From contig JBMOQX010000072.1 of NCBI GenBank assembly GCA_049322755.1, positions 14,662 through 78,661 on the forward strand: a DNA stretch of 64,000 nt, read 5' to 3'. This document shows, one piece after another, positions 400-20,017 of the stretch; the stretch's first letter is position 1, and each line of letters starts with the position of its first letter. Below the pieces are notes generated by a model. It was not told where the DNA came from. It ran no database searches and saw only the letters and a list, made by a program, of their open reading frames with translations. Both the position numbers and the translations under genes were made by a program. Source of the DNA: Pseudomonadota bacterium (lineage in GTDB: Bacteria; Pseudomonadota; Gammaproteobacteria; Burkholderiales; UBA6910).

Positions 400-1713
<1,314 letters not shown>

Positions 1714-1719
1714 CGCGGC

Positions 1720-3123
1720 TCAGCGTTCGGCGCGCAGGACGGTGACGCCGGGCGCTGCGGCCGTCAGGGGCGGTGCCAGACCCGGCTCGAAGCGCTTCAG
1801 GATGTCGTAATAGATGCGCACGTTCTCGGCGAGCTGCACGGCCTCATTGCCGCGGGCGAAACCGCGCGGCAGCGTGCGATAGTGCTCCGGGCGCGCGATC
1901 AGCGGCAGGCTGCGTTTCACGTCCACCCAGGCATCCGGCGACAGACCCATGCGCTGGGCCAGGATCCGCCCGTCCTCCAGGTGGCCGTAGCCGATGTTGT
2001 ACGCCGCGAGGGCGAGGAAGGTGCGATCCGGCTCGGCGATGCGTGCCGGCAGGGTGTCTTTCAGCAGCAGCAGGTACTGGGCGCCCGCCAGGATGCTCTG
2101 CCGAGGGTCGAGCCGGTCGCTCACTTTGAGCCGGTCCGCCGTGTCCTCCGTCAGCATCATCAACCCCCGCACGCCGGTGGGCGAGGTGGCGAGCGGATCC
2201 CACTGGGACTCCTGGTAGCCGAGCGCCGCCAGCAGGCGCCAGTCGATGCCGGTGAGACGCTCGGCTTCCTGAAACCATGCGCGGTAATTCGGCAGAACGG
2301 TGCGCCGCTTTTTCAGCAGCCCGGCGACGTCCAGCGGGCTCAGGCGATCGACGTGGCCGAAATAGCGATCCAGCAAACGCTTGAGCGTGCCGTCCTTTTC
2401 GATGCGCGCGAAAAACGCCTCGGCCTTGGCGAGCACCTGGGCCTCTCCCGTGCTCGGGAACGCCCAGGCGAGCGGCGCCGGCTCGCCGATCGGGAAGCCG
2501 CGCGCGATGCCGGGATAGAAATTGGTGGCCATGGAGACCAGGTTGGAGCGGGCAACCACGTAGTCGATTTCGCCGTCGGAGAGCTTGCCGAGGAGGTCCA
2601 GCCCATCGTCGGTGCGGATCTCGGCCCACGCCACCGGCGTGCCGTTCACCGCCTGAGCGCGCAGGTTCTCGACCGCACCGCTGCCGGCCACCACCGCCAC
2701 GCGGCGCCCCGCCAGGTCCGCCACGTCGCGCGGCTTGCGCTCGCCGCTGCGGAACGCCACCTCGTAGCGCTCCGCCTGGTACGGCGGGCCGGGCCTGAGG
2801 CCGCGGCGTTCCACCAGGCCGGCCGCGATGCCGGCCGCGCCGAAATGGGCCTGGCGCTGCTCGACCGCCGGGAGCACATCGGCGAGACTGGGCAGCAACA
2901 CGAAGCTGACCGTGAGGCCGTTCTCCTCGGCGAACAGGGTGACCAGGTCATGCTCGAGTCCGATGTAACGGCCGTCGGCGTCCTCGTAGAGGGTGACCGG
3001 GCTGTTGACCGTGGCCACCACCAGCTGGCGGGACGCAAGCGCGTGCGCCAGCGGCGGCGCCTCGTCGGCGCAGCCGGCGAAACCAAACGCTCCGATCAGG
3101 GAAATGAGGATGGGGGGCCGCAT
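1720..3123 (-). CDS. mltF: membrane-bound lytic murein transglycosylase F
   Basis: Solute-binding-protein-like N-domain followed by an SLT domain (GYQESQWDPLATSPTGVRGLMMLT). The ATG at 3123 gives a lipoprotein-like signal (MRPPILISLIGAFGFAGC). The ORF stays open up to 3192. Confidence 0.85.
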   Translation of the reverse strand: MRPPILISLIGAFGFAGCADEAPPLAHALASRQLVVATVNSPVTLYEDADGRYIGLEHDLVTLFAEENGLTVSFVLLPSLADVLPAVEQRQAHFGAAGIAAGLVERRGLRPGPPYQAERYEVAFRSGERKPRDVADLAGRRVAVVAGSGAVENLRAQAVNGTPVAWAEIRTDDGLDLLGKLSDGEIDYVVARSNLVSMATNFYPGIARGFPIGEPAPLAWAFPSTGEAQVLAKAEAFFARIEKDGTLKRLLDRYFGHVDRLSPLDVAGLLKKRRTVLPNYRAWFQEAERLTGIDWRLLAALGYQESQWDPLATSPTGVRGLMMLTEDTADRLKVSDRLDPRQSILAGAQYLLLLKDTLPARIAEPDRTFLALAAYNIGYGHLEDGRILAQRMGLSPDAWVDVKRSLPLIARPEHYRTLPRGFARGNEAVQLAENVRIYYDILKRFEPGLAPPLTAAAPGVTVLRAER

Positions 3124-3214
3124 CGCCGGGCACCGCAGGGCGTCCCCATTGTGCCAGCCCCGCTGCAACCGCCCCAAGGCGCAGCGCAGCATGACCGGGA
3201 CCGGGAGGCGTGGC

Positions 3215-3571
3215 TCAGGCGCGGGTTCCCGCCCTTCGTCGCCGCTCCACCATCGGGGTGACGCTGCGCTGGCGCCGGTCGGCGAGCCCGGCGCGGCGGA
3301 TCAGCTCCATCCAGAACTGGTCGCTGCGCTCCGATTTGAACTGGCGGAACAAGGCCACCTCCTCGGGATAGGCCCCCGGCGACCCCAGGCGTTCCAGATG
3401 CCGTGTCTTCTCGGCGCCGGACTCGCCGCCGTGATCCGACGCCCAGGCCCGGGTGATGGCCTGCCACAGCGCCCGCTCGAAGGGATCGCTGCCTTCGTCG
3501 AACCCGTACTGCCAGTTGAGAAACGACACTTCGGCCGGCGAGAGGTCATCGGTCCTGATGCGGATGCTCAT
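3215..3571 (-). CDS. hypothetical protein (118 aa)
   Basis: Complete ORF with non-repetitive, protein-like composition (MSIRIRTDDLSPAEVSFLNWQYGFDEG...). No family recognised. Confidence 0.55.
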   Translation of the reverse strand: MSIRIRTDDLSPAEVSFLNWQYGFDEGSDPFERALWQAITRAWASDHGGESGAEKTRHLERLGSPGAYPEEVALFRQFKSERSDQFWMELIRRAGLADRRQRSVTPMVERRRRAGTRA

Positions 3572-3710
3572 GGCTTCCAGACTCCGTTGCGGCGCCGGGC
3601 GCGGGGACCGGCAACTCCGCCATTGGTCAAGATGACGTGCCGATCATACCCGAGGCGCGCTTCGGGGCCCAGGGGAGGGCGTTTTCTCGCTTCGCGTCAG
3701 GCGGTTGCGC

Positions 3711-3719
3711 TGGTAAAAT
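3711..3719 (+). promoter_or_regulatory. extended -10 promoter element (tggtaaaat) for the upstream tRNA-Ser copy
   Basis: TGnTAAAAT lies 11 nt upstream of position 1 of the tRNA-like sequence. The same 9-mer is found before the intact tRNA. Confidence 0.5.
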
Positions 3720-3730
3720 GGCGGCCTGCC

Positions 3731-3923
3731 GGAGAGGTACCGAAGCGGTCATAACGGCGCCGACTCGAAATCGGATGGTCGGGTAAAACCGGCACGTGGT
3801 TCGACGAAAACGCACTGCGTTTTCGGACGTCGGCCCTCGGGGCCGACGGTCCCGGAGCCGCTTCGAGCGGCGCAGGGATGGCGGATCGCCTCAAGGCGAG
3901 CCGCCACAATCCCACCCTCTCTG
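3731..3923 (+). pseudogene. tRNA-Ser(CGA) paralogue interrupted in the T-loop by a ~103-nt insert
   Basis: 3731-3799 is identical to nt 1-69 of the tRNA at 3957. The copy continues gtgg-ttcga, then a ~103-nt insert (3805-3907), then aatcccaccctctct (3908-3922). That last stretch is the rest of the T-loop, the T-stem 3' strand and the acceptor 3' strand. No CCA is encoded. Confidence 0.75.
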
Positions 3924-3936
3924 ACCTTTCTTTCGT

Positions 3937-3945
3937 TGGTAAAAT
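3937..3945 (+). promoter_or_regulatory. extended -10 promoter element (tggtaaaat) for tRNA-Ser(CGA)
   Basis: TGnTAAAAT lies 11 nt upstream of tRNA position 1. Confidence 0.5.
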
Positions 3946-3956
3946 ACCGCGCAACC

Positions 3957-4049
3957 GGAGAGGTACCGAAGCGGTCATAACGGCGCCGACTCGAAATCGG
4001 ATGGTCGGGTAAAACCGGCACGTGGGTTCGAATCCCACCCTCTCCGCCA
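3957..4049 (+). tRNA. tRNA-Ser (anticodon CGA)
   Basis: 93-nt cloverleaf folded by hand. Acceptor GGAGAGG/CCTCTCC, anticodon loop CTCGAAA (CGA), long variable arm (type II), T arm GTGGG-TTCGAAT-CCCAC, discriminator G, encoded CCA. Confidence 0.95.
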
Positions 4050-4274
4050 CGACGCGCCTTAACATCTGGATATAAAGAGGTTTTCTCAGAGAATCCAAGC
4101 GCTACCCACAAATCTACCAGCGTTCGGGCGCTGGACGACTTTGGACGAGTCAGCGCGAATCTCGTGGCCCAGACTTTGACAGGAGTGCGCCATGGGCAAG
4201 AGAAAGGTGACCGGAAGTTTCGTGGGCGTGTGAAGAAAGCCTAGACCCGCCCGACCGGCGGGAAGGGGGGAAGC

Positions 4275-4559
4275 ATGCCGGTGGTATTCGCGATTCTGGG
4301 TGCTCTGTTCATCGCCGGCGGCGTGCTGGCGTTCATCACCGCGCGGGCGGTGACTCACGAACTCGCCGGCCTTGTGCTGCTGCTCATCGGCTTCATGCTG
4401 GTGGCGACGGCGGCGATCCTCGCGCGGCTTTGGTCCATCAACAAGACCTTGCGAGCGATCGGCGAGAACGCCTCGATCACGGCCGGAACGTCGAGCTCGG
4501 GCGACTTCGAGGAGCGCAGGACGCGCGAGCTCGCCGAGAAGCTGGCCCGGCGGCCCTGA
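4275..4559 (+). CDS. small membrane protein (94 aa, two predicted TM helices)
   Basis: ORF MPVVFAILGALFIAGGVLAFI...LVLLLIGFMLVATAAIL preceded by the RBS ggaagggggg. Its 5' end is paralogous to the next gene. Confidence 0.55.
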   Translation: MPVVFAILGALFIAGGVLAFITARAVTHELAGLVLLLIGFMLVATAAILARLWSINKTLRAIGENASITAGTSSSGDFEERRTRELAEKLARRP

Positions 4560-4579
4560 TCGGGTTGGAAGGGGGGAGC

Positions 4580-4954
4580 ATGCCCGTCGTGTTTGTCGTT
4601 GCCGGTGCGGTCCTCATCGGGGCGGCGTTGACAATCCTCCCTGATCGAGCGCAAGCGCGTGATCCGTGGCGTCACGTTGGGAAGATCGGGATGATGGACT
4701 TGGTGGTCGTCGACGCGGAGCAGGAGCTCAACAAGGACGTGTATCGCCTCGCCATCGGTAAGGTGTGCGCGGGGCGGGAATTCTGCAAGGTGTTGATCTG
4801 GGCTGACGAGCGCATGGTGCCCAAGACCATGCCAATGACAGACGCACAAGTTCGGGCCTTGCGAGCCAACTGGACCTATAACGGCCGCACCGGCTCCAGG
4901 ACGATGCTCTGGTCCTGCGACATCGATCCTGACCCCTCAAGCTGCTTCAGATGA
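4580..4954 (+). CDS. hypothetical protein with N-terminal TM/signal anchor (124 aa)
   Basis: Internal ATG at 4580 preceded by ggaagggggg-like RBS. N-terminus MPVVFVVAGAVLIGAAL. Cys-containing C-terminal domain. Confidence 0.5.
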   Translation: MPVVFVVAGAVLIGAALTILPDRAQARDPWRHVGKIGMMDLVVVDAEQELNKDVYRLAIGKVCAGREFCKVLIWADERMVPKTMPMTDAQVRALRANWTYNGRTGSRTMLWSCDIDPDPSSCFR

Positions 4955-5509: not shown

Positions 5510-5929
5510 TCAGTCGATCGCCATGACCCAGCCCTGCTCGGTGAGCACGGCCTTGCGCAGTTCGCGGCGCTCCTTCGCCTCCATGGCCTCATCGTAGGTC
5601 ATGGTCGGGCGGGCGTTGACCGCGGCGCTGGCGGGGTAGCCGGGCTGGTGGTACGGCGTCGTGGGCCCGTGGGGCTCCTCCTCGCCGCCGGGGGTCTGGG
5701 GCCGCTTGACCGGACGGCCGCGCAGGCTCGCATCGTAGCCCTTGCGCCGCTTGGGCTCTGAGAGCACCTCGTAGGCGCGATTGACGGCCTTGATCGTCTC
5801 CTCGCCCGCCTTGTCGTCGGGGTGGCGGTCGGGGTGCAGCTGGCTCACCAGGCGGCGGTACGCGGCGGTGATGTCCTGCGCGCTGGCGTCGCGCTCGACC
5901 CCGAGGATATCGTAGTGCGTCGGCGTCAT
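5510..5929 (-). CDS. J-domain (DnaJ-like) protein
   Basis: YDILGVERDASAQDITAAYRRLVSQLHPDRHP carries the HPD motif. Strong RBS GGAGAGGAG before the ATG at 5929. No zinc-finger or C-terminal DnaJ domains. Confidence 0.8.
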   Translation of the reverse strand: MTPTHYDILGVERDASAQDITAAYRRLVSQLHPDRHPDDKAGEETIKAVNRAYEVLSEPKRRKGYDASLRGRPVKRPQTPGGEEEPHGPTTPYHQPGYPASAAVNARPTMTYDEAMEAKERRELRKAVLTEQGWVMAID

Positions 5930-6016
5930 GTCACTCCTCTCCGATGGCACGTTGAAGGTTGGGGGCGCGGCTCGGAATCGGCTCCCCGGGGGTCCACCAG
6001 AACTCCTGGCCGAGCA

Positions 6017-6583
6017 TCAGAAGTCGTCCAGGGAACGGCTGGTGCCGTAGATGCCGAAGTTGGCGCTGCGCAGCTTGTCCGGGTTGGTGCCGCCGGTTTT
6101 CCAGCCGGGGCCGTAGAGGTCGGCACCGGTGGCGAGGAGCGAGGCGCCTGCACCGATGGTGGCGGAGCGCAGCGCGTTGCGTCCGGAGGCGGTGTGGCCC
6201 GCGGCGGCCTGGTCGAGCTTGGCGCCGATCCGGCCCCCCGCGAGGATCTCGGCGAGCGCGTCGAATTCCCCGCGCGTCTCGATGTCCTGCACGATCTTCA
6301 CCGGCGTCCCGGCGTCGCTGGAGACCCCGGAGGCGCCCAGCGCGGCGGTCGCCTGGCCCACCTGCGCGCGCACCTGGCGGCGGATCCGGTCGGCCCGCAC
6401 TTCACCGGCTTCCCGTTCCGCTTGCGCGTCCGCCGCGGCCTGCTGCGCCTGGAAGTTGTGGAAGCGCTTCTGCTGCTGCCCCTGCGAGATGGTGTTGATC
6501 GCCGAGAGGCCGGCGCCGACCGCCGCGATCGTCCCCGCGTTGGCGGCGAAGAAGCTGCCGATGATCTCCAAACCGGTGCACAT
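6017..6583 (-). CDS. hypothetical phage-like protein (188 aa, Gly/Ala/Gln-rich)
   Basis: Complete ORF. An N-terminal hydrophobic segment is followed by a QQ/AA-rich coiled region. It is reminiscent of phage internal/ejection proteins, but that similarity is weak. Confidence 0.5.
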   Translation of the reverse strand: MCTGLEIIGSFFAANAGTIAAVGAGLSAINTISQGQQQKRFHNFQAQQAAADAQAEREAGEVRADRIRRQVRAQVGQATAALGASGVSSDAGTPVKIVQDIETRGEFDALAEILAGGRIGAKLDQAAAGHTASGRNALRSATIGAGASLLATGADLYGPGWKTGGTNPDKLRSANFGIYGTSRSLDDF

Positions 6584-6595
6584 GATCCGCCCCCC

Positions 6596-7399
6596 TCAGG
6601 CCGCTTCCGGCTCGGGCGGCGCCTCGCCGGCGTTCGATGCGTCGAGCTCGGCCGCGTCCTGGTCTGCACCGCGGCGCGCCTGCAGGTCCATCGCCTCGTC
6701 GAGGTCGGCGAGCAGCTGCAGGCCGTCGGCGTGGATCAGCCGACCCAGCGGCTGGGGCATGACGGTCGCCGGCATGCGATCGTAGGGCCACAGCCGCGAG
6801 TCGTGGCGCGCGAAGTGCATCTCGACCAGGTGCCGCACGTGATCGGGCCGCAGCGCCGCGATGGTGGACGAAGGCACCCGCGAGCCGATCATCGGCTGAA
6901 CCTGCTGAGCGATGCGCCAGCACTGCGCGAGGGCTTCGAGCAGCTGGTCGGCCGCGGCCTCGGCCTTCTGGCCCCACGCGCTGCGCTCCTCGATGAGGGC
7001 CTCGATCGCCGCGCGCCGCCGCTCCAGTTCCGAGCGCCGCTCGCGCTCCCGGGCGACGAGGAATTGCTCGCGCGCGCTCTCGAGCGCCAGCGCCATCACG
7101 TCGCGGGCGCTGCGATGGTCGGCGAGCTCGCGCTTCAAGCGCTGCACGCCCTCGTCGCTGTCGGCGCCGAGCGCGCCCAGGACTTCGCGCTTTACCCGCA
7201 CCTCCAAGGCCTTGAGCGCGCCGTCCATGGCCTTGAGCCGCGCCTCCAGCAGCCCCACGCCCTGGCGGATCTCAGCGCTGCTCAACCTGCCCAGCGGCTT
7301 GCGGAAGATCTCGCGCAGCGGGTCGTCGGTCTTGCTCTGCGGCCGCTCCGGAATCTGCACCACGTTGTCCGTCGTCATCTCGCTGTCTCCTTCGCTCAT
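6596..7399 (-). CDS. hypothetical coiled-coil protein (267 aa)
   Basis: Complete ORF. Its ATGA overlap with the upstream gene at 7396-7399 indicates translational coupling. Confidence 0.6.
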   Translation of the reverse strand: MSEGDSEMTTDNVVQIPERPQSKTDDPLREIFRKPLGRLSSAEIRQGVGLLEARLKAMDGALKALEVRVKREVLGALGADSDEGVQRLKRELADHRSARDVMALALESAREQFLVARERERRSELERRRAAIEALIEERSAWGQKAEAAADQLLEALAQCWRIAQQVQPMIGSRVPSSTIAALRPDHVRHLVEMHFARHDSRLWPYDRMPATVMPQPLGRLIHADGLQLLADLDEAMDLQARRGADQDAAELDASNAGEAPPEPEAA

Positions 7400-7599
7400 T
7401 TCATGGGTCTTACGTTGATCGGGACGTTGATGCCCACCATGTCCCGCAGCCGCCGGTTCTGCTCGTCGCGCGGCTCGAAGGCGAGCGGGACCTTCGCCAT
7501 CTGCAGCAGGGTCTTTTCCCGCTTGCGCTTGTCTCCTTTGCCGAGCGGCTCGCCGAGGATCGCCGCGCTCGTCACCAGGTCAACCGGATTGCCGCACAT
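7396..7599 (-). CDS. hypothetical protein (67 aa)
   Basis: Small ORF in the coupled array. Confidence 0.4.
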   Translation of the reverse strand: MCGNPVDLVTSAAILGEPLGKGDKRKREKTLLQMAKVPLAFEPRDEQNRRLRDMVGINVPINVRPMK

Positions 7600-7603
7600 C
7601 GGG

Positions 7604-8248
7604 TCACCTCGCTTTCGAGAACTTCTGGTCCCACGCGCGCGACATGCTTTCGATCAGCCACGCGGAGTTTCCTGCGCCGGTCAGGTCGATCAGCTCGGCG
7701 ATGCGCGGGTCGCGCTGCTCGAGCCGCTCGTACAGCTTCCGGGCCGAGGCCAGGATCGCGCCCGCCTGATCGCCGTGCCGCAGCTCAAGCTCCGCCTGCG
7801 CCGCGAGGCGGGCGTGCTCCAGCGCCTCGTCGTCGGGGAGGCCCTGCCGGACGTTGCGCGCCATCACCTGCACGGCCACGTCGACCACGGCCGCCGGCAC
7901 GCCCTCGGCGTGGAGCGCCTGCGCGATTTCGGCCGAGAGCTCGCGCTCCTGCGGGCTCGGCTCCGGGCCGCTCCGCAGCGCGCTGAAGTCGTAACCGGCC
8001 GGCGTCGCGGGCCGCGCGAGCCACTCCGCGCCCTCCGGCAGCCGCTCCGGGGGTTGTGCGTCGCCGGTCCCTTGCCGCTCGGGGTAGGCAGCCGCGAAGG
8101 CCCTGGTCATCTCACTGACCGCCCGCGCGTCACCGCTCACGTACCGGTCCATGAACTCGGCGTTTTCCCGCAGCGCGACCAGTTGCGTCCTCGCGGCCTC
8201 CGCCGTGCCCGGCTCGCTGCTCTGCTGCTGCTCGTTGTCGCTCATCAT
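7604..8248 (-). CDS. hypothetical protein (214 aa)
   Basis: ATG-ATG at 8248 preceded by GGAGG. The longer 370-aa ORF upstream is Arg/Gly-rich and looks non-coding. Confidence 0.6.
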   Translation of the reverse strand: MMSDNEQQQSSEPGTAEAARTQLVALRENAEFMDRYVSGDARAVSEMTRAFAAAYPERQGTGDAQPPERLPEGAEWLARPATPAGYDFSALRSGPEPSPQERELSAEIAQALHAEGVPAAVVDVAVQVMARNVRQGLPDDEALEHARLAAQAELELRHGDQAGAILASARKLYERLEQRDPRIAELIDLTGAGNSAWLIESMSRAWDQKFSKAR

Positions 8249-8646
8249 GCCTCCCGTGTAAAAACGTCCCGTACCTGCCACGCCAGGCAGCGCGCGAGTT
8301 GCCCCAGCGCGAAGCCCGCCTGCCGCAGCGCTGCGCCCGCGTGACGCCACCAAAGCACCGCCTCCGGCACGATATCGCTCACCTCCACCAGCGGCCAGCG
8401 CGAGCCCTCCTCGCCCGGCCCAGGGGCGACGTAGCGCTGCCGGCCGACGACGCCAATCGCATCCCCGACCCGGCAACCAGCGAGCCGGTGGCGCACCACT
8501 GGATCCGCCGCGAGTAGCCGCACGGTGACGTGCTCGCCGTTCGCGCCGGTGTCCACGCGCAGGGTCGCCAGCACCACATGCCGGCCGTCGCGCCACAGGT
8601 GCGGCTCGGGGGCAGCGCTGATGCAACCGTGCGCGAGGAGGGTCAC
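8245..8646 (-). CDS. hypothetical protein (133 aa)
   Basis: ATGA overlap with the downstream gene at 8245-8248. Confidence 0.5.
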   Translation of the reverse strand: MTLLAHGCISAAPEPHLWRDGRHVVLATLRVDTGANGEHVTVRLLAADPVVRHRLAGCRVGDAIGVVGRQRYVAPGPGEEGSRWPLVEVSDIVPEAVLWWRHAGAALRQAGFALGQLARCLAWQVRDVFTREA

Positions 8647-8777
8647 GGCCGGACCCTCGCCGAGGTGGGGACGGCGCCGGGACGTGGGTGCCGGTGGGGG
8701 TAGCCCTCCAGGTCACCGGATGCGGCCTTTCCGGTCAGGCAGTTGCGGCTCGGATCGGCGGAAAAGGTCTCCGTCAC
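8643..8777 (-). CDS. small coupled ORF (44 aa)
   Basis: The GTG at 8777 overlaps the dnaC-like stop (GTGA). Its own TGA overlaps the next ATG (ATGA at 8643-8646). By my hand count, most of the 44 third codon positions are G/C. Confidence 0.4.
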   Translation of the reverse strand: MTETFSADPSRNCLTGKAASGDLEGYPHRHPRPGAVPTSARVRP

Positions 8778-9502
8778 TGGCGCCCCCTCGCCGACGTGCC
8801 GTCGAGGGCGAGCACCTGGCCGCCGTTCTCCAGCAGCCGATCCGCGAGCCGCTCGCCGAGCTCGATATTGAGCTCCCGCCAGGTCAGGTTCGACGCGAGC
8901 AGGGTTGGGCGGCACTCGCGATAGCGAGCGTCCACCAGCGCCACCAGCGCGGCGCGCTCGGAATCCCACGAGGGTCGCGCCACCTCGTCGAGCGCGAGCA
9001 AGTGCGGGCGCGTGAACTCGGGCCCCCGCTCATCACCGCGCCGCGACCAGTCGCCGCCGAAAGCCGCGAGGGCATCGGCCATCGTCGCGTAGCGCGCCGG
9101 GACCAGCTGCTCGACCGCGGCCTGCACGATCGCCGCGAGGAGGTGCGTCTTACCCACGCCGACCGGGCCGGTGAGCACCAGGCACGTCCCGGCGTGAACG
9201 TTCGTCTCCAGGTCGGCTACGTAACGCCGGCAGGCCTCGAGCGCGGCCGCCTGCTTGGGCGTGCGTGGCCGGTAGTCGGCGAACCCGCGCCCGCTGAAAC
9301 GCGCGGGGATCGCCGCGGCGACGGTGAGGCTGAAGAGGCGCTGCGCCCGCTGGATCGCCCGGTCGGACTCTGCGCGGCGCGCTCGTTCGTCGGCGATGCA
9401 GTTGTCGCAGCGCCCGATCCAGCGGCCGGCGACGAACACGCGCCGGAATTCGCCGTGGGTCTCACAGCGGCCGATCTCGCCCACCACGTCGGTGTCGCTC
9501 AT
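8774..9502 (-). CDS. DnaC/IstB-like AAA+ helicase-loader protein
   Basis: Walker A LTGPVGVGKTHL and Walker B-like LLALDEV. N-terminal Cys4 (CETHGEF...CDNC) zinc-ribbon-like motif. Confidence 0.8.
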   Translation of the reverse strand: MSDTDVVGEIGRCETHGEFRRVFVAGRWIGRCDNCIADERARRAESDRAIQRAQRLFSLTVAAAIPARFSGRGFADYRPRTPKQAAALEACRRYVADLETNVHAGTCLVLTGPVGVGKTHLLAAIVQAAVEQLVPARYATMADALAAFGGDWSRRGDERGPEFTRPHLLALDEVARPSWDSERAALVALVDARYRECRPTLLASNLTWRELNIELGERLADRLLENGGQVLALDGTSARGRQ

Positions 9503-10305
9503 CGGTCGCTCCCCGTCGGGAGGTCGGTCGAATAATTTTTTTGCTGCAGGTCGACATCAAATGCGCCCCGCCGCCCGATCCCGTTGCCGGGCCGGCTGCG
9601 CTCGCGCCGGACCCAGTTCAGCCAGGCGTGGCGCCAGTTCTTGCGCCGCTTGCCGGCGCCCTCGCCCTCCGTCCAGTACTCGCAAAATCCGGCGTACACC
9701 TCCGCCGGGTTGAGATCGCTCCGCGTCTCGACGCAGGCCTGCCGCCAGTCCTCGGGGATCGTCTCGGGACCGCTAAAAGCAGTGGGAGCACGCTTGCGTG
9801 CGCTCTCTGGTTTTACGACTCCGACAACGACTCCGACTCCGACTACGGGCGCGCGCGCCGGACATTCGTCGGGCATGTGTCCGTCACCTGTCGGGCGCGT
9901 GTCAGGCATTTGCGCGGTGCGTTCCTTGATTTGACGGATGTTTTCCAGAACGTCGGGTTCGTCATGGAGTAGGCTGTCGGGCGGTGGCGGGCGCAGAAAT
10001 GTGCGCGCCCGGAAGCGCTGTTTGAATCTTGGAATGTAGATGAACCGCTTCCCATCCACGTCGTAAGTGCGCACCAAGTCGGCGTCGACCAGGCCGTTCA
10101 GGATCTTGAGCGCGTCGTCGCGCCCCTTGACGTTGCACACGTCCCGCCAGGTGCGCACCAGCTGGCCATCAGAGGCATCGTAGGTGCCGAGGTCGTCGAC
10201 GCGCAGGAGAAGCGCGACGTAGGCCAGGCGCTCGACCGGGTGCGCGAGCGAGAGCCAGCGGTCGGATTCGAGAAGCGCTTCGCGGATGACGCGGCTCGGC
10301 ATCAC
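9499..10305 (-). CDS. phage replication-initiation/organiser-like protein
   Basis: 268-aa ORF with an ATGA overlap to the dnaC-like gene. Winged-helix-like N-domain (VERLAYVALLLRVDDLGTY...). Position before the loader is typical of replication O/DnaD-like proteins. The family assignment is tentative. Confidence 0.55.
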   Translation of the reverse strand: MMPSRVIREALLESDRWLSLAHPVERLAYVALLLRVDDLGTYDASDGQLVRTWRDVCNVKGRDDALKILNGLVDADLVRTYDVDGKRFIYIPRFKQRFRARTFLRPPPPDSLLHDEPDVLENIRQIKERTAQMPDTRPTGDGHMPDECPARAPVVGVGVVVGVVKPESARKRAPTAFSGPETIPEDWRQACVETRSDLNPAEVYAGFCEYWTEGEGAGKRRKNWRHAWLNWVRRERSRPGNGIGRRGAFDVDLQQKNYSTDLPTGSDR

Positions 10306-11917: not shown

Positions 11918-13150
11918 TTACCCCCTCGCCCGCAGCGCGGTGACCGTACCCTTGGCCGCCGGCCGCTGCTTGCAGAACTTCGCCCAATCGATCATCAGGC
12001 GTCGGCGCTTCTCGAACAGGTCGCCGCGGCGGTAGGCGGCCTCGGTCTTGTCGCTGATGATGTGCGCCAGCGCCATCTCGCAGACCTCGCGCGGGTAGGC
12101 CGTGCACTCGGCGGCCCAGTCCCGGAACGTCGAGCGGAAGCCGTGCACGGTCAGATCGTTGTGGCCCATGCGCTTGAGCAGGTTCAGCATCGCCATGTTG
12201 GACAGTGGCTTGCCCTTGCGCTGTCCGGGGAAAACGTGCGCCTTGCCTTCGGCCAGCTGCGCCTCGACGATCTCCACAGCGCGCGGTGAAAGCGGAACGC
12301 GGTGCTCGCGCCCGGCCTTCATGCGCGCCCCGGGGACTGTCCAGACGCCTTTGTCGAGGTCGAATTCCTCCGGCCTGGCGCCAATGACCTCGCCGGTCCT
12401 GGCGGCCGTCAGGATCGTGAATTCCAGGGCCCGCGCCGCGGTGCCCTCCTGGTCGCGCAGGTCAGCCATGAACGCCCCGATCCGGGCGTAGGGCAGCGCG
12501 CTGTGCGGCCTCACCCGGTCGGCCTTCTTGATCTTCGCCAACAACTTGTCCAGGTGCCCGCGCCACCGCGCCGGGTTGTCGCCGGTGCGGTAGCCGTGCA
12601 CGGTGGCCCAGTCCAGCACCGAGGCGATCCGGGCGCGCAGCCGCGTTGCAGTCTCCGTCTTTTCGGTCCAGATCGGCCCCAGCACGTTCAGCACCGCGGA
12701 CGTGTCCACGTCGGCGACGGGCCAGGTACCGAACACCGGCCCGCAATACGTCTCCAGGGTGGCCTCCCACTGCGCCGCGTGCTTCTCGTTCTTCCAGCCA
12801 GCCCCGTGCGCCTTGATGTAGGCGGCGGCGCACTCGTCGAACGTCTTGGAGCGGGCCGCAGCGAGCGCCTGCGCGCTCCTGGCCGCTCTGCGGGCCTCCA
12901 GCGGGTCGATCTTGTCAGCCAGCAGCCCGCGGCACTCCTCGGCCTTCTTGCGGGCCGTGGCGAGGCTCACGGCGTTCAGCGAGCCCAGGCCCATCTCGCG
13001 GGACCGGCCGTTCAGGGTGTAGCGGAAGACCCAGGACTTCGTGCGTGCCGGGGAAACCTGCAGGTAGAGCCCGCCGCCGTCGCCCCAGTAGCCCGACCGC
13101 CGGAGCGCCTCGACCGCCTTTGCCGAAAGCTTGTGAAGTCGCCGCGCCAT
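11918..13150 (-). CDS. tyrosine-type site-specific integrase (P4-like, DUF4102 N-domain)
   Basis: N-terminus KLSAKAVEALRRSGYWGDGGGLYLQVSPARTKSWVFRY. Catalytic region HGFRSTFRDWAAE ... ALAH...AYRRGDLFEKRR. Confidence 0.93.
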   Translation of the reverse strand: MARRLHKLSAKAVEALRRSGYWGDGGGLYLQVSPARTKSWVFRYTLNGRSREMGLGSLNAVSLATARKKAEECRGLLADKIDPLEARRAARSAQALAAARSKTFDECAAAYIKAHGAGWKNEKHAAQWEATLETYCGPVFGTWPVADVDTSAVLNVLGPIWTEKTETATRLRARIASVLDWATVHGYRTGDNPARWRGHLDKLLAKIKKADRVRPHSALPYARIGAFMADLRDQEGTAARALEFTILTAARTGEVIGARPEEFDLDKGVWTVPGARMKAGREHRVPLSPRAVEIVEAQLAEGKAHVFPGQRKGKPLSNMAMLNLLKRMGHNDLTVHGFRSTFRDWAAECTAYPREVCEMALAHIISDKTEAAYRRGDLFEKRRRLMIDWAKFCKQRPAAKGTVTALRARG

Positions 13151-13195: not shown

Positions 13196-13281
13196 GACGG
13201 TTTCGGACGCGTCAAGACAAGATTATCTTTAAGTTATTGGCTTGTATGAAAGAAAAAATCCGGGATCAGACGGTTTCGGAC
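13196..13281. repeat. 13-bp direct repeat gacggtttcggac (13196-13208 and 13269-13281) flanking an AT-rich 60-bp spacer
   Basis: Read directly. Lies between the int start and the serine recombinase stop. The second copy overlaps the last codons of the recombinase. Confidence 0.8.
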
Positions 13282-14912
13282 AAGCCGGATGGTGATTTGG
13301 GCGGACACCCTCTCCGCCAGTTCGGTACAAAGCTGGGCACCGCGCCCGCCGATGCTGCGACGCCCGATCCGGCGAGGGTTCGCAGCAGGTTCGTTTTCGA
13401 TCCCATGATCCGGACCTCGCCCTCGGCGACCTCGACCCGCTGGGCAAGCGCGCGCAGGTGCTCGCGGCGGTAGCCCTGCGGCCCGCGAATGCGGCGGCGG
13501 GCGCTGTCGGCGAAGCGGCGCAGCGAGTCGGCCGTGATGGTCTGGCCGGCGCCCTCCAGCGCCATGCTCGCCCGCTCGGCGTCCACGCGGGCCTGGTCGC
13601 GGGTCGCCTTCAGCTCGGTGATGCGATCCTTCAGCGCCGGGTCATCCAGGTCGGCAAGGCCGCGCTCGATGGCGTCATAGAGCCGCTTCAGCCGGGCGTC
13701 CGCCTCGGCGGCGCGCTTGGCCAGCTCAGCGGCGATGGTGCGCCTGCGCTCGGCGCGCTCCTCCCGGCGGTCGAGCAGGCTGGCCAGCACCTCTTCCAGC
13801 CGCTCGGGATCGAGCAGCCGCTCCTCCAGGTGCGAGGCCACAAGATCGTCCAGCTTCGGCATGGGGATCGAGCGACCCTTGCAGCCGGTCGCGCCCTGCC
13901 GGGCGGCGATGGAGCAGGTGTAGTAGCGGTAGCGGCCCGACTTCCCCGTGCGGATGGTCATCGCCCCGCCGCAGTCGGCGCAGAAGCAGATGCCGGTGAG
14001 CAAGGTCGGCCCGCCGACCACCTGCGGCGGCGCGACCTTGGGATTCCGCGCCTTCAAGTGCGCCTGCACGGCGTCGAACGTCTCCTGGTCGATCAGGCGC
14101 GGAACGGGCACGGCGATCACCTGATCGTCGGGCTTGTTGGCGCCGTTCTTGGTGCGCCGGTTGAACTCGTGGACGCCGATGTAGCTGGTTCGCGTCAGCA
14201 TCCGGTGCACCGCGCCAATGCCCCAGCGCCCGCCGGTGCGGGTGTAGAGCCTGCGCTCATTGAGGTGCTTGGCGATCGCCTTCACGCCCATGCGCCCGCT
14301 CGTGCCGTCGCCCTCCAGCGCCAAGCGAAAGGCGAGCCGCACCGTGTCGGCGTGAAGCGGGTCGATCTCCAGCTTCTTCTTGACCTTGGCGCCGCGCTTC
14401 TCGGCATCGACCACCCGGTAGCCGATCGGCGGCAGCGAGCCGTTCCAGAAGCCCTGCCTTGCGTTCTCTTTCAAGGCTCTGAGCGTGTGCTTGGCGTTCT
14501 CCTTGGACTGATACTCGTCAAACAGCGCCATGATCTGGCGCATCATCACGTGCATCGGGTCGTCCCCGAGCTCCTGGGTCATGGAGACGAGCCGGACGCC
14601 GTTCTTGGCGAGCTTGCGGACGTAGAACTCCAGCTCGAAGTGGTCGCGGAAGAAGCGGGAGAAGGAATGGACGATCACCACGTCGAAGGCGGGCGGTCTT
14701 TGCGTGCCCGCCTCCATCATGCGCTGGAACTCGGGGCGGCGATCATTGGTCGCGGACGCGCCCGGCTCGACATAGGTCTCGACCAGCTCGTAGCCGCGGG
14801 CGGCGCAGTAGGCTTCCCCCTGCTTGCGCTGGTCGGGGATGGACACGTCATGCTCGGCCTGTCGAGCCGTCGAGACGCGCAGGTAGAGGGCGGCGCGGAG
14901 CGGGACGGTCAT
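13266..14912 (-). CDS. large serine recombinase
   Basis: Resolvase catalytic domain (LRAALYLRVSTARQ...). Followed by a recombinase domain, a zinc-ribbon (CADCGG...YYTC) and a coiled-coil tail. Confidence 0.92.
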   Translation of the reverse strand: MTVPLRAALYLRVSTARQAEHDVSIPDQRKQGEAYCAARGYELVETYVEPGASATNDRRPEFQRMMEAGTQRPPAFDVVIVHSFSRFFRDHFELEFYVRKLAKNGVRLVSMTQELGDDPMHVMMRQIMALFDEYQSKENAKHTLRALKENARQGFWNGSLPPIGYRVVDAEKRGAKVKKKLEIDPLHADTVRLAFRLALEGDGTSGRMGVKAIAKHLNERRLYTRTGGRWGIGAVHRMLTRTSYIGVHEFNRRTKNGANKPDDQVIAVPVPRLIDQETFDAVQAHLKARNPKVAPPQVVGGPTLLTGICFCADCGGAMTIRTGKSGRYRYYTCSIAARQGATGCKGRSIPMPKLDDLVASHLEERLLDPERLEEVLASLLDRREERAERRRTIAAELAKRAAEADARLKRLYDAIERGLADLDDPALKDRITELKATRDQARVDAERASMALEGAGQTITADSLRRFADSARRRIRGPQGYRREHLRALAQRVEVAEGEVRIMGSKTNLLRTLAGSGVAASAGAVPSFVPNWRRGCPPKSPSGLSETV

Positions 14913-17563: not shown

Positions 17564-19609
17564 TCAGATGCCGATCCCGCGCGCGCGTCCGATCGTCCAC
17601 TCGATGCCGCCGCCCGCACGTATGACGCCCGTCACCTCGCGCCCGAGCTGGTGATCGATCGCCGGCCGCCAGGGCACGAGCTGGAACTCGAAGGCGTTCT
17701 CGACCATCGCGAACCGACCCGAGGCGAGCTGCACCGTGCCGGCGAACGTGCCCCGCACGCTCTCGCCGGCCGCGGCCACGCGGAACGGCAGGCCGCGCTC
17801 CCGGGCCAGCGCCTCGCCGGCACGGCTCACCTCCTGCCGCTCCAGCGTGGCGAGCAGGTCCGGCCGCGCCCTTATCCTGCCGTCCGCGCCGTGCCAGGCG
17901 TGCCCCTGCCGGACCAGCTCGCTCTTCCGCGCCTCGAAGGCCTCGGTCACCTCCGCCCCGAAGCCGAAGCTGGCGAGCGCCACGCGGTTCCGGCTGACGA
18001 GCTGGCGGTCGAGCCAGGTGGCGCCGTCGCTCGTCACCTGCCTCTCCAGGTCGAAGGCGGAGAGAAGGCGCAGACTGGCCTGACGGCTGCGGCGCGCCTC
18101 GTAGGCGTTCGCGCGGCTCTCGAAGTCCTCCGGGATATGCCAGCGGTCGGGGCCGAGCCGCTCCACGATCCCGGCCCGCCTGATCGCCTCCAGCCGGCGC
18201 ACATGGCTGTCGACGAAGGCGTCCGGGTCGGCGCCTTTGGGCAGGCGCACGTCGCCGCTGTCGATGAGCCGCCGGTGCTGGCTCGGGCGGTACTCGCCGA
18301 TCCCGCGCGCCAGCTCGGCGATGGCGCAGTCGGCGGGGCGGCCCTGCGCCCGGGGGCCGGCCTCGACGATGCTGCCGACCCGCACCTCGTTCAGCGCCGC
18401 GGCGGCGTCCACCTCGACGTGGTGCACGCGCCCGTCCACGCCATCGATCACGAGCCCGATGCGGTCGGACAGTTCGTCGGTCAGCCCCTTGCCGATCACC
18501 CGGCCGACGATCGGCTCGGCGGGCGCGGTGCCGTGGACCCGGTAGCTCATCGGGTCGCGCTCCTGCCCGCGCCGGCTGAGCGCGCGGTTCATCGCCTTGA
18601 TGATGTCGCCGCGCTCGCCCAGCTCGCGCAGCGTGGGTTCCAGCCTATCGGATAGGGTCCAGACGCCGGGCGCCGCCTCCTTGGCCAGCCCCATGCGCCC
18701 CAGCGTCTGCATGCGGCCGATGCGGAGCGTGCGGTCGAAGTCGGCGCGGACCTGGCCGGCGTCGGGGCGCATGTCCATGACGCGCCCGTCCGCCTCCTCC
18801 AGCATGGCGCGGTCGATGCGGGTAAAGCGGTCGGCCGCCACCTCCGCCTGGAGCTTCTGCCGTAGCTCCAGGTCCGTCTCCGGCCCCAGCTCCAGGGTGA
18901 CGCGCTCCTGCGCCCGGAGACGCACGCCGTCGGTGATGTAGTCCTGGGCGATGATCAGGTCTTTGCCGGTGTCGTCCTTGCCCCGGATCACGACATGGCT
19001 GTGCGGGTGGCCGGTGTTGAAGTGATCGACCGCGACCCAATCGAGCCTGGTGCCAAGGTCCGCCTCCATCTGGCTCATCACGTCGCGGGTGAAACCGCGA
19101 AGGTCCGAAAGCCGGTCGCCGTCCTCGGGCGCCACGATGAAGCGAAAGCTGTGCCGATCCCCTTCGCCCCGCTCGACGAAGGCGGAGCGATCCGCATGGT
19201 CCGTCTCCGGCCCGTAGAGCTGGCCGCGTTCGCCGTCGCGGGTGGTGCCGTCGCGCTCCAGGTAGCGCAGGTGTGCGCCCGCTGCTCCGCTCTCCAGCTT
19301 GTGGCGGACGATCCGGGCCTTCACCACCACGCGCCGCGTCCGGACCGGGCGCCCGCCCGCCGCCCGCTTCAGCGCCTCGGCCGCCTTCTGGCCGCGTCCG
19401 ATCCGGCAGCACCGTCCCTTTCCGGTCCGGCTGCCGCCGCGCCGGGCTGCGCCGCGCATCTGCGCCGGGGTGAGCGGGCCGCCGTTGGCCTTGGCCGCCG
19501 CGCGCATCACCTGATCGACGAAGCTGCGGGCGCGCGGAGCCGACGCGCGGCCCCGATCGCGGATACGGCCGGGACGGAGGCGGAGGTCGGAAGCGTCGTC
19601 GCGGGTCAT
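17564..19609 (-). CDS. relaxase/mobilisation nuclease (VirD2-like N-domain + DUF3363-type C-region)
   Basis: AHLRYLERDG, FRFIVAPEDG and the His triad HFNTGHPHSHVVIRG. ATG at 19609. Confidence 0.85.
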   Translation of the reverse strand: MTRDDASDLRLRPGRIRDRGRASAPRARSFVDQVMRAAAKANGGPLTPAQMRGAARRGGSRTGKGRCCRIGRGQKAAEALKRAAGGRPVRTRRVVVKARIVRHKLESGAAGAHLRYLERDGTTRDGERGQLYGPETDHADRSAFVERGEGDRHSFRFIVAPEDGDRLSDLRGFTRDVMSQMEADLGTRLDWVAVDHFNTGHPHSHVVIRGKDDTGKDLIIAQDYITDGVRLRAQERVTLELGPETDLELRQKLQAEVAADRFTRIDRAMLEEADGRVMDMRPDAGQVRADFDRTLRIGRMQTLGRMGLAKEAAPGVWTLSDRLEPTLRELGERGDIIKAMNRALSRRGQERDPMSYRVHGTAPAEPIVGRVIGKGLTDELSDRIGLVIDGVDGRVHHVEVDAAAALNEVRVGSIVEAGPRAQGRPADCAIAELARGIGEYRPSQHRRLIDSGDVRLPKGADPDAFVDSHVRRLEAIRRAGIVERLGPDRWHIPEDFESRANAYEARRSRQASLRLLSAFDLERQVTSDGATWLDRQLVSRNRVALASFGFGAEVTEAFEARKSELVRQGHAWHGADGRIRARPDLLATLERQEVSRAGEALARERGLPFRVAAAGESVRGTFAGTVQLASGRFAMVENAFEFQLVPWRPAIDHQLGREVTGVIRAGGGIEWTIGRARGIGI

Positions 19610-20017
19610 GGCGAGGAGCTTGCGCCGGCGCCGCTCGCACGCAAGCACGGCCCCGAGGGAGGCGCAGAATGGCGCAGAAATACAGGGATTTGGCGGTGCG
19701 AGCGGCACCGCTCCGCCGAGGGGTCGGCGAAAAACAATGTGCAGACAAGAAGTTACCGGCAAACGCGAGTTTGCTTTAATCTTGCCGTCGTCTTCGCTTC
19801 CGCCAAAGGTGCGCTATCCTGCGCCGCTCTACTACGACAGCCGCAATTGGCAGCATGTGCGCTCTGACAGTGCACTTCGCGGTATGACCGTCGGATCACG
19901 TGCGGACAACTTGCGCATGGCACGCGGCCCGTCTGCCGTCAGAGTGCCGACGGACCAGCGCTCGACATGCGATCAGGGCGCCGATCTTCCGTCCGCTGAC
20001 CTGTTGCCGAGCGGCGG

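Follow-up and report, generated by a model that had tools for sequence, protein, structure and literature searches.

A probable RtT-type hairpin module in the T-loop of a putatively disabled tRNA-Ser(CGA) duplicate of a betaproteobacterium

The tandem tRNA-Ser(CGA) locus and its insert

The locus described here lies in a 64,000-nucleotide (nt) stretch of a betaproteobacterial genome (assembly GCA_049322755.1, contig JBMOQX010000072.1), hereafter termed the window, and consists of an intact tRNA-Ser(CGA) gene preceded by a second copy whose T-loop is interrupted by a hairpin-forming insert. ARAGORN and Rfam called the same single tRNA, the downstream copy (Table 1), whose mature sequence is identical to that of the tRNA-Ser(CGA) of Pelomicrobium sp. 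G1 (locus L002), the closest genome (MltF 63% amino-acid identity). Neither program called a tRNA in the upstream copy (3731-3922). The first 69 nt of that copy, comprising the acceptor 5' strand, D arm, anticodon arm, long variable arm and first 4 nt of the T-stem, proved on direct comparison to be identical to those of the intact gene, as a preliminary description of the window had stated. The identical run is exactly 69 nt from tRNA nt 1, with 2 matching nt upstream of nt 1, and forms part of a 95-nt direct repeat (3705-3799 and 3931-4025, 92% identical) in which all mismatches are 5' of the tRNA. The T-stem strand then reads GTGG in the upstream copy versus GTGGG in the intact gene, one G (G53) being missing, and is followed by TTCGA and the insert. 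The tRNA sequence resumes with AATCCCACCCTCTCT and continues with GACC, not GCCA, which gives a G1:U72 pair and leaves CCA unencoded. The 3' fragment thus matches the tRNA end over 14 nt exactly, a direct repeat AATCCCACCCTCTC at 3908-3921 and 4031-4044, before the sequences part as T-GACC versus C-GCCA. The interruption, resumption and altered end agree with the preliminary description; the length of the insert, put there at about 103 nt, is corrected to 103 or 104 nt (3805-3907/8), depending on which A is assigned to the T-loop. The insertion point is between A58 and A59, and at most one A is duplicated.

Each copy has its own extended -10-like element, the tggtaaaat described previously, at the same distance from tRNA nt 1 (P1 and P2; Table 1). 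The P1 region, TTGCGCTGGTAAAAT, is similar to the promoter region of the tRNA-Ser gene of L002, TTCGCTGTTAAAAT, which the P2 region, TTCGTTGGTAAAAT, matches at 12 of 14 positions; TTCG(C/T)TG(G/T)TAAAAT is common to all three. This shared motif indicates that the second tRNA gene is a native duplicate and not island-borne, and on its sequence P1 is a candidate active promoter. Removal of the hairpin core in silico left a clean tandem duplication of about 122 bp, in which the tRNA is preceded by 26 nt of the promoter region and followed by 4 nt. A contig from a separate, short-read assembly (Logan SRR32167793, L001) stops at window position 3758, 28 nt into the repeat, as would be expected of a real repeat, which would cause such a break.

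In the minimum free energy (MFE) fold of the insert (-69.3 kcal/mol), as in an inverted-repeat search, all four GC-rich hairpins of the preliminary description were found; the one listed there as third is the inner hairpin of H3. The whole 195-nt unit folds at -107.9 kcal/mol (z = -6.6 versus shuffles), and the acceptor stem of the upstream copy is still able to close in the predicted MFE fold. The 3' end of the module lies 49 nt before the intact gene. A repeat search and the covariance models R1 and R2 (see below) each indicated a single module copy in the 64 kb, and BLASTN of 3600-4100 against plasmids matched the tRNA part alone.

Table 1 Features of the window and D-loop modules at two other loci
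Feature	Position	Strand	Basis or remark
serS	427-1713		
MltF-like gene	1720-3192	-	
P1, TGGTAAAAT, extended -10-like element	3711-3719	+	11 nt before disrupted tRNA copy
nt 1-69 of tRNA-Ser(CGA)	3731-3799	+	100% identical to intact gene (direct comparison)
TTCGA, T-loop positions 54-58, left module junction	3800-3804	+	read from sequence
Four-hairpin module, RtT type	3805-3907	+	MFE fold; covariance models R1, R2
H1	3805-3825	+	inverted repeat and MFE fold
H2	3828-3848	+	inverted repeat and MFE fold
H3, with inner hairpin GCCGC-TTCGA-GCGGC at 3857-3871	3849-3879	+	inverted repeat and MFE fold
H4	3880-3905	+	inverted repeat and MFE fold
Tail AC after H4	3906-3907	+	
AATCCCACCCTCTCT: remaining T-loop, T-stem 3' strand, acceptor 3' strand	3908-3922	+	C72 changed to T
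P2, TGGTAAAAT, extended -10-like element of intact gene	3937-3945	+	11 nt before tRNA nt 1
Intact tRNA-Ser(CGA), CCA encoded	3957-4049	+	ARAGORN; Rfam tRNA 48.6 bits
Accessory region absent from L002	4050-~26500		synteny break
P4-type tyrosine integrase	11918-13150	-	
Large serine recombinase	13266-14912	-	
Relaxase/DUF3363	17564-19762	-	
D-loop module	L100:13168-13281	+	R2 74.8 bits
D-loop module	L157:~1081-1207	-	R2 29.7 bits

RtT-type units beside tRNA genes

The insert belongs to a family of about 40 units beside tRNA-Ser genes in beta- and gammaproteobacteria, together with the Escherichia coli tyrT/rtT 178-bp repeats (Rfam RtT, RF00391), a relation that the preliminary description did not recognize. 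The architecture TTCGA-C-H1-GGAC-H2-H3(CCC..GGG)-GAG-H4-GAGC-AATCC is common to insert and family, and the module is always placed between TCGA and A(A)T of tRNA loop sequence, in the order (G)GGTTCGA, core, AATCC and on to CCA. The usual unit stands 3' of an intact tRNA and its terminator. Its first part is a leader in which the T arm and acceptor strand recur in inverted orientation, and this leader can pair with the terminal tRNA fragment. Accordingly arranged are the loci L002, L042 and L061, where the syntenic tRNA-Ser(CGA) and a terminator are followed by a unit composed of the inverted leader (for example, GAGGGTGGGAT-TAAGAA-CCCAC), a short spacer, GTGGGTTCGA, C plus the hairpin core, and AATCCCACCCTCTCCGCCA, the last 19 nt of the tRNA. 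The left junction TTCGA-C is shared by the window and these three loci; junctions in E. coli are mostly TTCGA-C/T, with TTCGG-C in one unit. An E. coli tyrT unit has the same design in tRNA-Tyr sequences, GGGGAAGGAT-GAGAA-CTTC-gacc-AAGGTTCGA, hairpins and AATCCTTCCCCCACCACCA. Four E. coli tyrT units scored 133-137 bits with the Rfam RtT model, one of them between tyrT and tyrV; the four correspond to the classic tyrT repeats of 178 bp, all of which terminate with the final 19 nt of tRNA-Tyr. The complete unit in the tyrT-tyrV spacer (L082, E. coli K-12 1286300-1287900; 132.9 bits) is unannotated in RefSeq, which gives 1 rttR feature at this locus versus the 4 units present. The name rttR is also mentioned in recent work (10.1101/2024.07.17.603846).

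Metagenomic units were collected with the pattern TTCGAC-N(73-103)-AATCCCNCCCTCTC. Among 121 matches, 77 were due to chance (the anchor lying inside an intact tRNA) and about 35 were true units, all of them 37-100 nt downstream of a tRNA-Ser gene (cga, gga, gct or tga). The spacer after the tRNA's CCA recurs after each unit's CCA, so that the arrays are tandem repeats of spacer, leader, core and 19 nt, as in E. coli; several end in an apparent partial unit, like the 3.14 repeats of E. coli. At L100:4393-4489 (+), a signal recognition particle (SRP) RNA gene begins 17 nt past an RtT-type unit that follows tRNA-Ser(GGA). The T stem of this unit is CCCGC versus CCCTT in the adjacent tRNA, so the unit was not copied from its neighbor. 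An IMG/VR provirus contig (L221:9925-10730, +) ends with the 3' half of a tRNA-Ser(CGA), starting from the anticodon loop and attR-like, and four tandem RtT-type units with a period of about 184 bp come directly after it. At L074:4550-5750 (-), a different repeat of about 100 nt ending in ATCCCACCCTCTCCGCCA occurs twice downstream of tRNA-Ser(CGA) and brackets a cassette of about 1 kb with two small open reading frames (ORFs), an antitoxin/toxin-like pair as judged by eye from the translation. This repeat was rejected as an RtT core (R1 17-22 bits).

Most units, like the window insert, form the same four consecutive hairpins in their MFE folds. Covariation was assessed in 23 modules with a consensus structure projected from single-sequence MFE folds. 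The paired fraction of cells was 86.9%, as compared to 33-43% after sliding partners by one to three columns, a measure that is partly circular as the consensus was derived from folds of the same sequences. Compensatory changes, which are not subject to this circularity, were present in 21 of 28 pairs, and 0-1 of 500 shuffles reached any of the five observed covariation values. When RNAalifold was applied to the raw MAFFT alignment, only parts of H1 and H4 were recovered. Covariation in RtT has been reported by others (10.1101/2020.02.04.933952; PMC8250186). On the tRNA-sense strand, G.T exceeded A.C in helices (19 versus 9, p 0.09), and the sense strand folded better in 18 of 24 modules, a slight indication that it is on this strand that the structure acts.

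Two covariance models were built. R1, seeded with 30 units and including neither the window nor E. coli, matched window 3795-3926 with 66.2 bits (E 1e-13), a score to which the flanks may add up to 33 bits, the value of a bare tRNA-Ser T arm. The same model detected the E. coli RtT units (33-41 bits) and left the T arms of E. coli tRNA-Tyr unreported. R2, built from the insert (core) only, scored the window core at 27.5 bits (E 0.02-0.03), its sole match in the 64 kb; the corresponding values were 48 bits for L002, 35 for L042, 30 for L061 and 18-26 for E. coli. Two of the tRNA-Ser-linked units in L221 passed the Rfam RtT gathering score (54 versus 45 bits) and were also matched by R2 (43 and 39 bits), which ties the E. 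coli RtT repeats, the tRNA-Ser units and the window together. Most tRNA-Ser-linked units fall below the Rfam threshold, these two being the only ones to pass, and the window gave no match to Rfam RtT even at E up to 10. The curated Rfam RtT model is narrower than the family found here. The best Rfam match of the insert was AaHKsRNA22 (Aggregatibacter sRNA 22, RF02902). The alignment takes in the complete model and window 3794-3910, with 24.3 bits (E 0.018; gathering score 39.8), and shows hairpins and linkers in the same succession. The nearest relative of the window core is that of L143 (71% identity), which has the same H1 loop.

The window insert is thus probably an RtT-type module in a disabled tRNA duplicate, a judgment that concerns the identity of the insert and does not extend to the choice between routes of origin. 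Several points weigh against it. The insert reaches no Rfam gathering score; its 27.5 bits with R2 are modest, with H3 and H4 poorly aligned; part of the R1 score is owed to tRNA flanks; and the paired fraction has the circularity noted above. The conservation of flanks in the metagenomic units is not independent evidence because the sampling pattern required TTCGAC and AATCCCNCCCTCTC; it is independent only at the synteny-derived loci and in E. coli. The window copy is also without the leader that defines RtT, since a search of 3000-4600 found no inverted T-arm leader, and its 3' fragment is without CCA. A two-hexamer sigma-70 scan found nothing in the P1/P2 region, and the two routes of origin considered below are indistinguishable from one genome. 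In the predicted fold, the closing-helix role of the absent leader is taken by the tRNA 5' acceptor strand, the module being joined to a complete 5' body whose acceptor stem supplies this helix.

This arrangement, in which the module precedes the intact gene and is carried by a complete 5' tRNA body with a promoter-like element of its own, was found in none of the approximately 40 other T-loop units. Two further 5'-fused cases were observed, in L100 and L157 (Table 1). Here a partial 5' copy of tRNA-Ser carries the core within its D-loop (GGTCGA^AT), with an intact tRNA-Ser 34-59 nt downstream. In both, the core leads into a short flank derived from the tRNA, next to which stands the inverted complement of that flank (in L157, for example, GCGCTGGAC-GGTCCAGCGC). 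The motif GGT(T)CGA^AT is common to T-loop and D-loop positions. The two modules of L100 lie 9 kb apart in different contexts and are reciprocal nearest relatives with 88% identity; the core has thus been copied from site to site within one genome. The window locus represents an element type that is known but unexplained, in a new configuration, and is not a new class: the E. coli tyrT repeats and the rtT RNA have been known for decades, and to our knowledge, their origin and function are unexplained.

Genomic setting and alternative explanations

The likenesses to the RtT/tyrT repeats are a link to a class II tRNA gene with a long variable arm, a left flank of T-stem 5' strand and TTCGA, a right flank leading from AAT of the T-loop into the tRNA 3' end, the core order H1, H2, short CCC..GGG hairpin and H4, detection by R1 and R2, and the possibility of standing between tandem tRNA genes (tyrT-RtT-tyrV). 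In contrast to those repeats, the window unit has no inverted leader, is mounted on a whole 5' tRNA body with a promoter-like element and has lost the CCA; its core is longer (103 nt versus about 67) because of the extra hairpin in H3; it belongs to a tRNA-Ser of a betaproteobacterium and not to a tRNA-Tyr of an enterobacterium; and it scores below the Rfam RtT threshold. The sX4 small RNA (sRNA) of Xanthomonas (RF02223) is comparable in another respect, its model being a tRNA-Ser plus a downstream stretch complementary to the T/acceptor strand. This model scored 41.5 bits on the tRNA-Ser plus leader of L042, below its gathering score of 70, and weakly (19 bits) on the window. The reported Northern band of sX4 is 280-300 nt versus a sequenced length of 156 nt (PMC3300014), and the band length would fit a precursor of tRNA plus unit, which is only a lead.

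Upstream of the locus, serS, the MltF-like gene and the divergent tRNA-Ser(CGA) (window 427-4049) keep an order found across many beta- and gammaproteobacteria (L002-L081), with the pairing of mltF and divergent tRNA-Ser(CGA) kept in about 60 beta- and gammaproteobacterial loci. This conserved order places the SerS gene about 2-3.5 kb from its cognate tRNA gene. An ORF of 118 aa lies after the MltF-like gene and before the tRNA locus; the exact 118-aa protein has a sole record, on a Logan contig of 1.5 kb that is cut off within the repeat, and an exact look-up of the SerS protein returned no record. On the other side, as the preliminary description had proposed, an accessory region of about 22 kb begins at the edge of the locus: synteny with L002 is lost at the CCA end (4049) and regained at about 26.6 kb. 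The first part of the region contains long ORFs without a Pfam match, one of 840 aa (5822-8344, +; 7604-8716, -; 8525-9535, +; 9499-10305, -). The same interval in L002 holds RtT-type units, a threonine-aldolase-like gene and a small Cys-rich ORF.

This setting bears on the proposal that the 104 nt are a scar of integration and excision by a tyrosine integrase, the remnant of an island or prophage arm at the tRNA-Ser T-loop, linked to the 22-kb island. Repeats from the T-loop to the 3' end of a tRNA are the classic attachment (att) repeats, which integrative or cis-mobilizable elements leave by tRNA genes, from T-loop to CCA and sometimes in tandem. The accessory region begins exactly at the tRNA 3' end and encodes a P4-type integrase, a serine recombinase and a relaxase; moreover, half a tRNA-Ser stands at the provirus border in L221 before its four units, and in L074, the different repeat of about 100 nt and a tRNA 3' fragment flank the 1-kb cassette. 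Against these points, the same module is found at island-free loci (L002, L042, L061 and E. coli tyrT), and its helices covary like a selected structure. The junction at A58/A59 duplicates at most one A, with no 7-bp overlap, and does not lie at overlap borders. The intact gene stands between the module-bearing copy and the island, whose integrase gene is 8 kb from the tRNA; no distal repeat of the tRNA 3' end was found at the far side of the region or elsewhere in the 64 kb. Finally, a pattern scan of viral contigs gave one true module in 20 hits, that one in host flank, the others being due to chance; no enrichment in viral contigs was seen. The scar, one of four options in the preliminary description, is therefore largely refuted, and we give it little credence. 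A dispersed repeat that landed by chance, of the repetitive extragenic palindrome or miniature inverted-repeat transposable element (REP/MITE) kind, for example, one associated with IS200/IS605-type palindromes, is improbable as well, if marginally less so. It would account for the terminal hairpins, the lack of inverted terminal repeats and of a target duplication beyond one A, the precise insertion after a fixed TCGA in T-loop and D-loop contexts, and the close relationship of copies within one genome. However, all family members found lie in tRNA-derived sequence by a tRNA gene and are not scattered, and where the preliminary description had allowed for many identical REP/MITE copies in the genome, the 64 kb contain a single one. 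IS200/IS605 ends use guide sequences, for which there is no room, as H1 begins 1 nt from the junction, and a Pfam scan of 18 window ORFs found no transposase of the HUH/TnpA or RAYT type.

A new kind of processed insertion, a small T-loop intron whose removal would render the first copy functional, had also been considered. The perfectly kept 5' 69 nt with their own promoter-like element and the acceptor stem that still closes in the MFE fold are in keeping with it, and with the core removed in silico, ARAGORN does draw a tRNA-Ser(cga). This product, however, has a 4-bp T stem for want of G53, a G.U at 1:72 and no CCA, and the intact copy 35 nt downstream makes selection on the first copy unnecessary. 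About 40 other family members lie in tRNA fragments unable to yield a tRNA. Known bacterial group I tRNA introns are likewise insertions inside a tRNA gene, but these have a P1-P9 architecture of at least about 200 nt and interrupt the anticodon loop; the window insert is 104 nt of four simple, independent hairpins in the T-loop and has no Rfam intron match. An intron is accordingly very improbable. The last alternative, a tandem repeat collapsed or mis-joined during assembly, is scarcely credible: such repeats do break short-read assemblies, and L001 ends inside this one, yet the flanks of the two copies differ and are internally consistent, the module is a genuine member of the family at the canonical junction, and L001 breaks at k-1 into the repeat, as a real repeat predicts. 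Of the four options in the preliminary description, a miniature element in a duplicated gene and a tRNA-derived structured sRNA came closest, in that the module belongs to a covarying, tRNA-tied family and occupies a spare copy.

Origin, expected fate and significance

For the RtT-type module in its disabled duplicate, two routes of origin are considered. Precise insertion, or templated copying or conversion, of a module into the T-loop of a spare tRNA copy may quite possibly have produced the locus; this route is supported by the D-loop cases and the L100 pair. A second route, which we hold somewhat more tentatively, would start from a unit between two tRNA copies, as in E. coli tyrT-RtT-tyrV, followed by a deletion joining the T-loop of the first tRNA to the (G)GTTCGA flank of the unit. 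The missing G would then be explained by the occurrence of only GG before TTCGA in several units (L143, L114, L125 and L128), and the decayed 3' end would be explained as well. A broader proposal, that the RtT core is a site-specific or templated insertion aimed at GGT(T)CGA^AT of T-loops and class II D-loops, we regard as rather doubtful. Were it true, the window would represent a nearly primary insertion in a full-length tRNA copy, and the familiar units 3' of tRNA genes, the 178-bp tyrT repeats of E. coli among them, would have arisen later by rearrangement.

With its 4-bp T stem, U72, missing CCA and an intact copy close by, the upstream copy is most likely dead as a tRNA, and decoding would be done by the downstream copy. 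A scan of the window found no terminator-like site between the two copies, which makes cotranscription the simplest expectation, probably in the form of a single precursor started from P1 (and P2). The chimeric RNA of about 195-225 nt that RNase P would then release, by cutting where the intact tRNA begins, may behave like RtT RNA. Release of a stable rtT RNA from the tRNA precursor in E. coli was reportedly described by Bosl and Kersten in 1991. The units may possibly be mimics of a tRNA minihelix, with an acceptor plus T-stem helix, a CCA end, a five-base T-loop motif and the module after position 58, in which case they could be handled by tRNA enzymes.

The four-hairpin core is thus widespread beside tRNA-Ser genes well outside the enterobacteria, with helices under selection and a module at one exact position in tRNA loop sequence. 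It occurs in three configurations: downstream with an inverted leader, in the T-loop on a whole 5' tRNA body, and in the D-loop. For annotation, the family explains a class of "broken" tRNA copies that are skipped by tRNA finders and mostly missed at Rfam thresholds. For the elements themselves, the three configurations offer a comparative handle on whether they are mobile insertions or tRNA-like RNAs.

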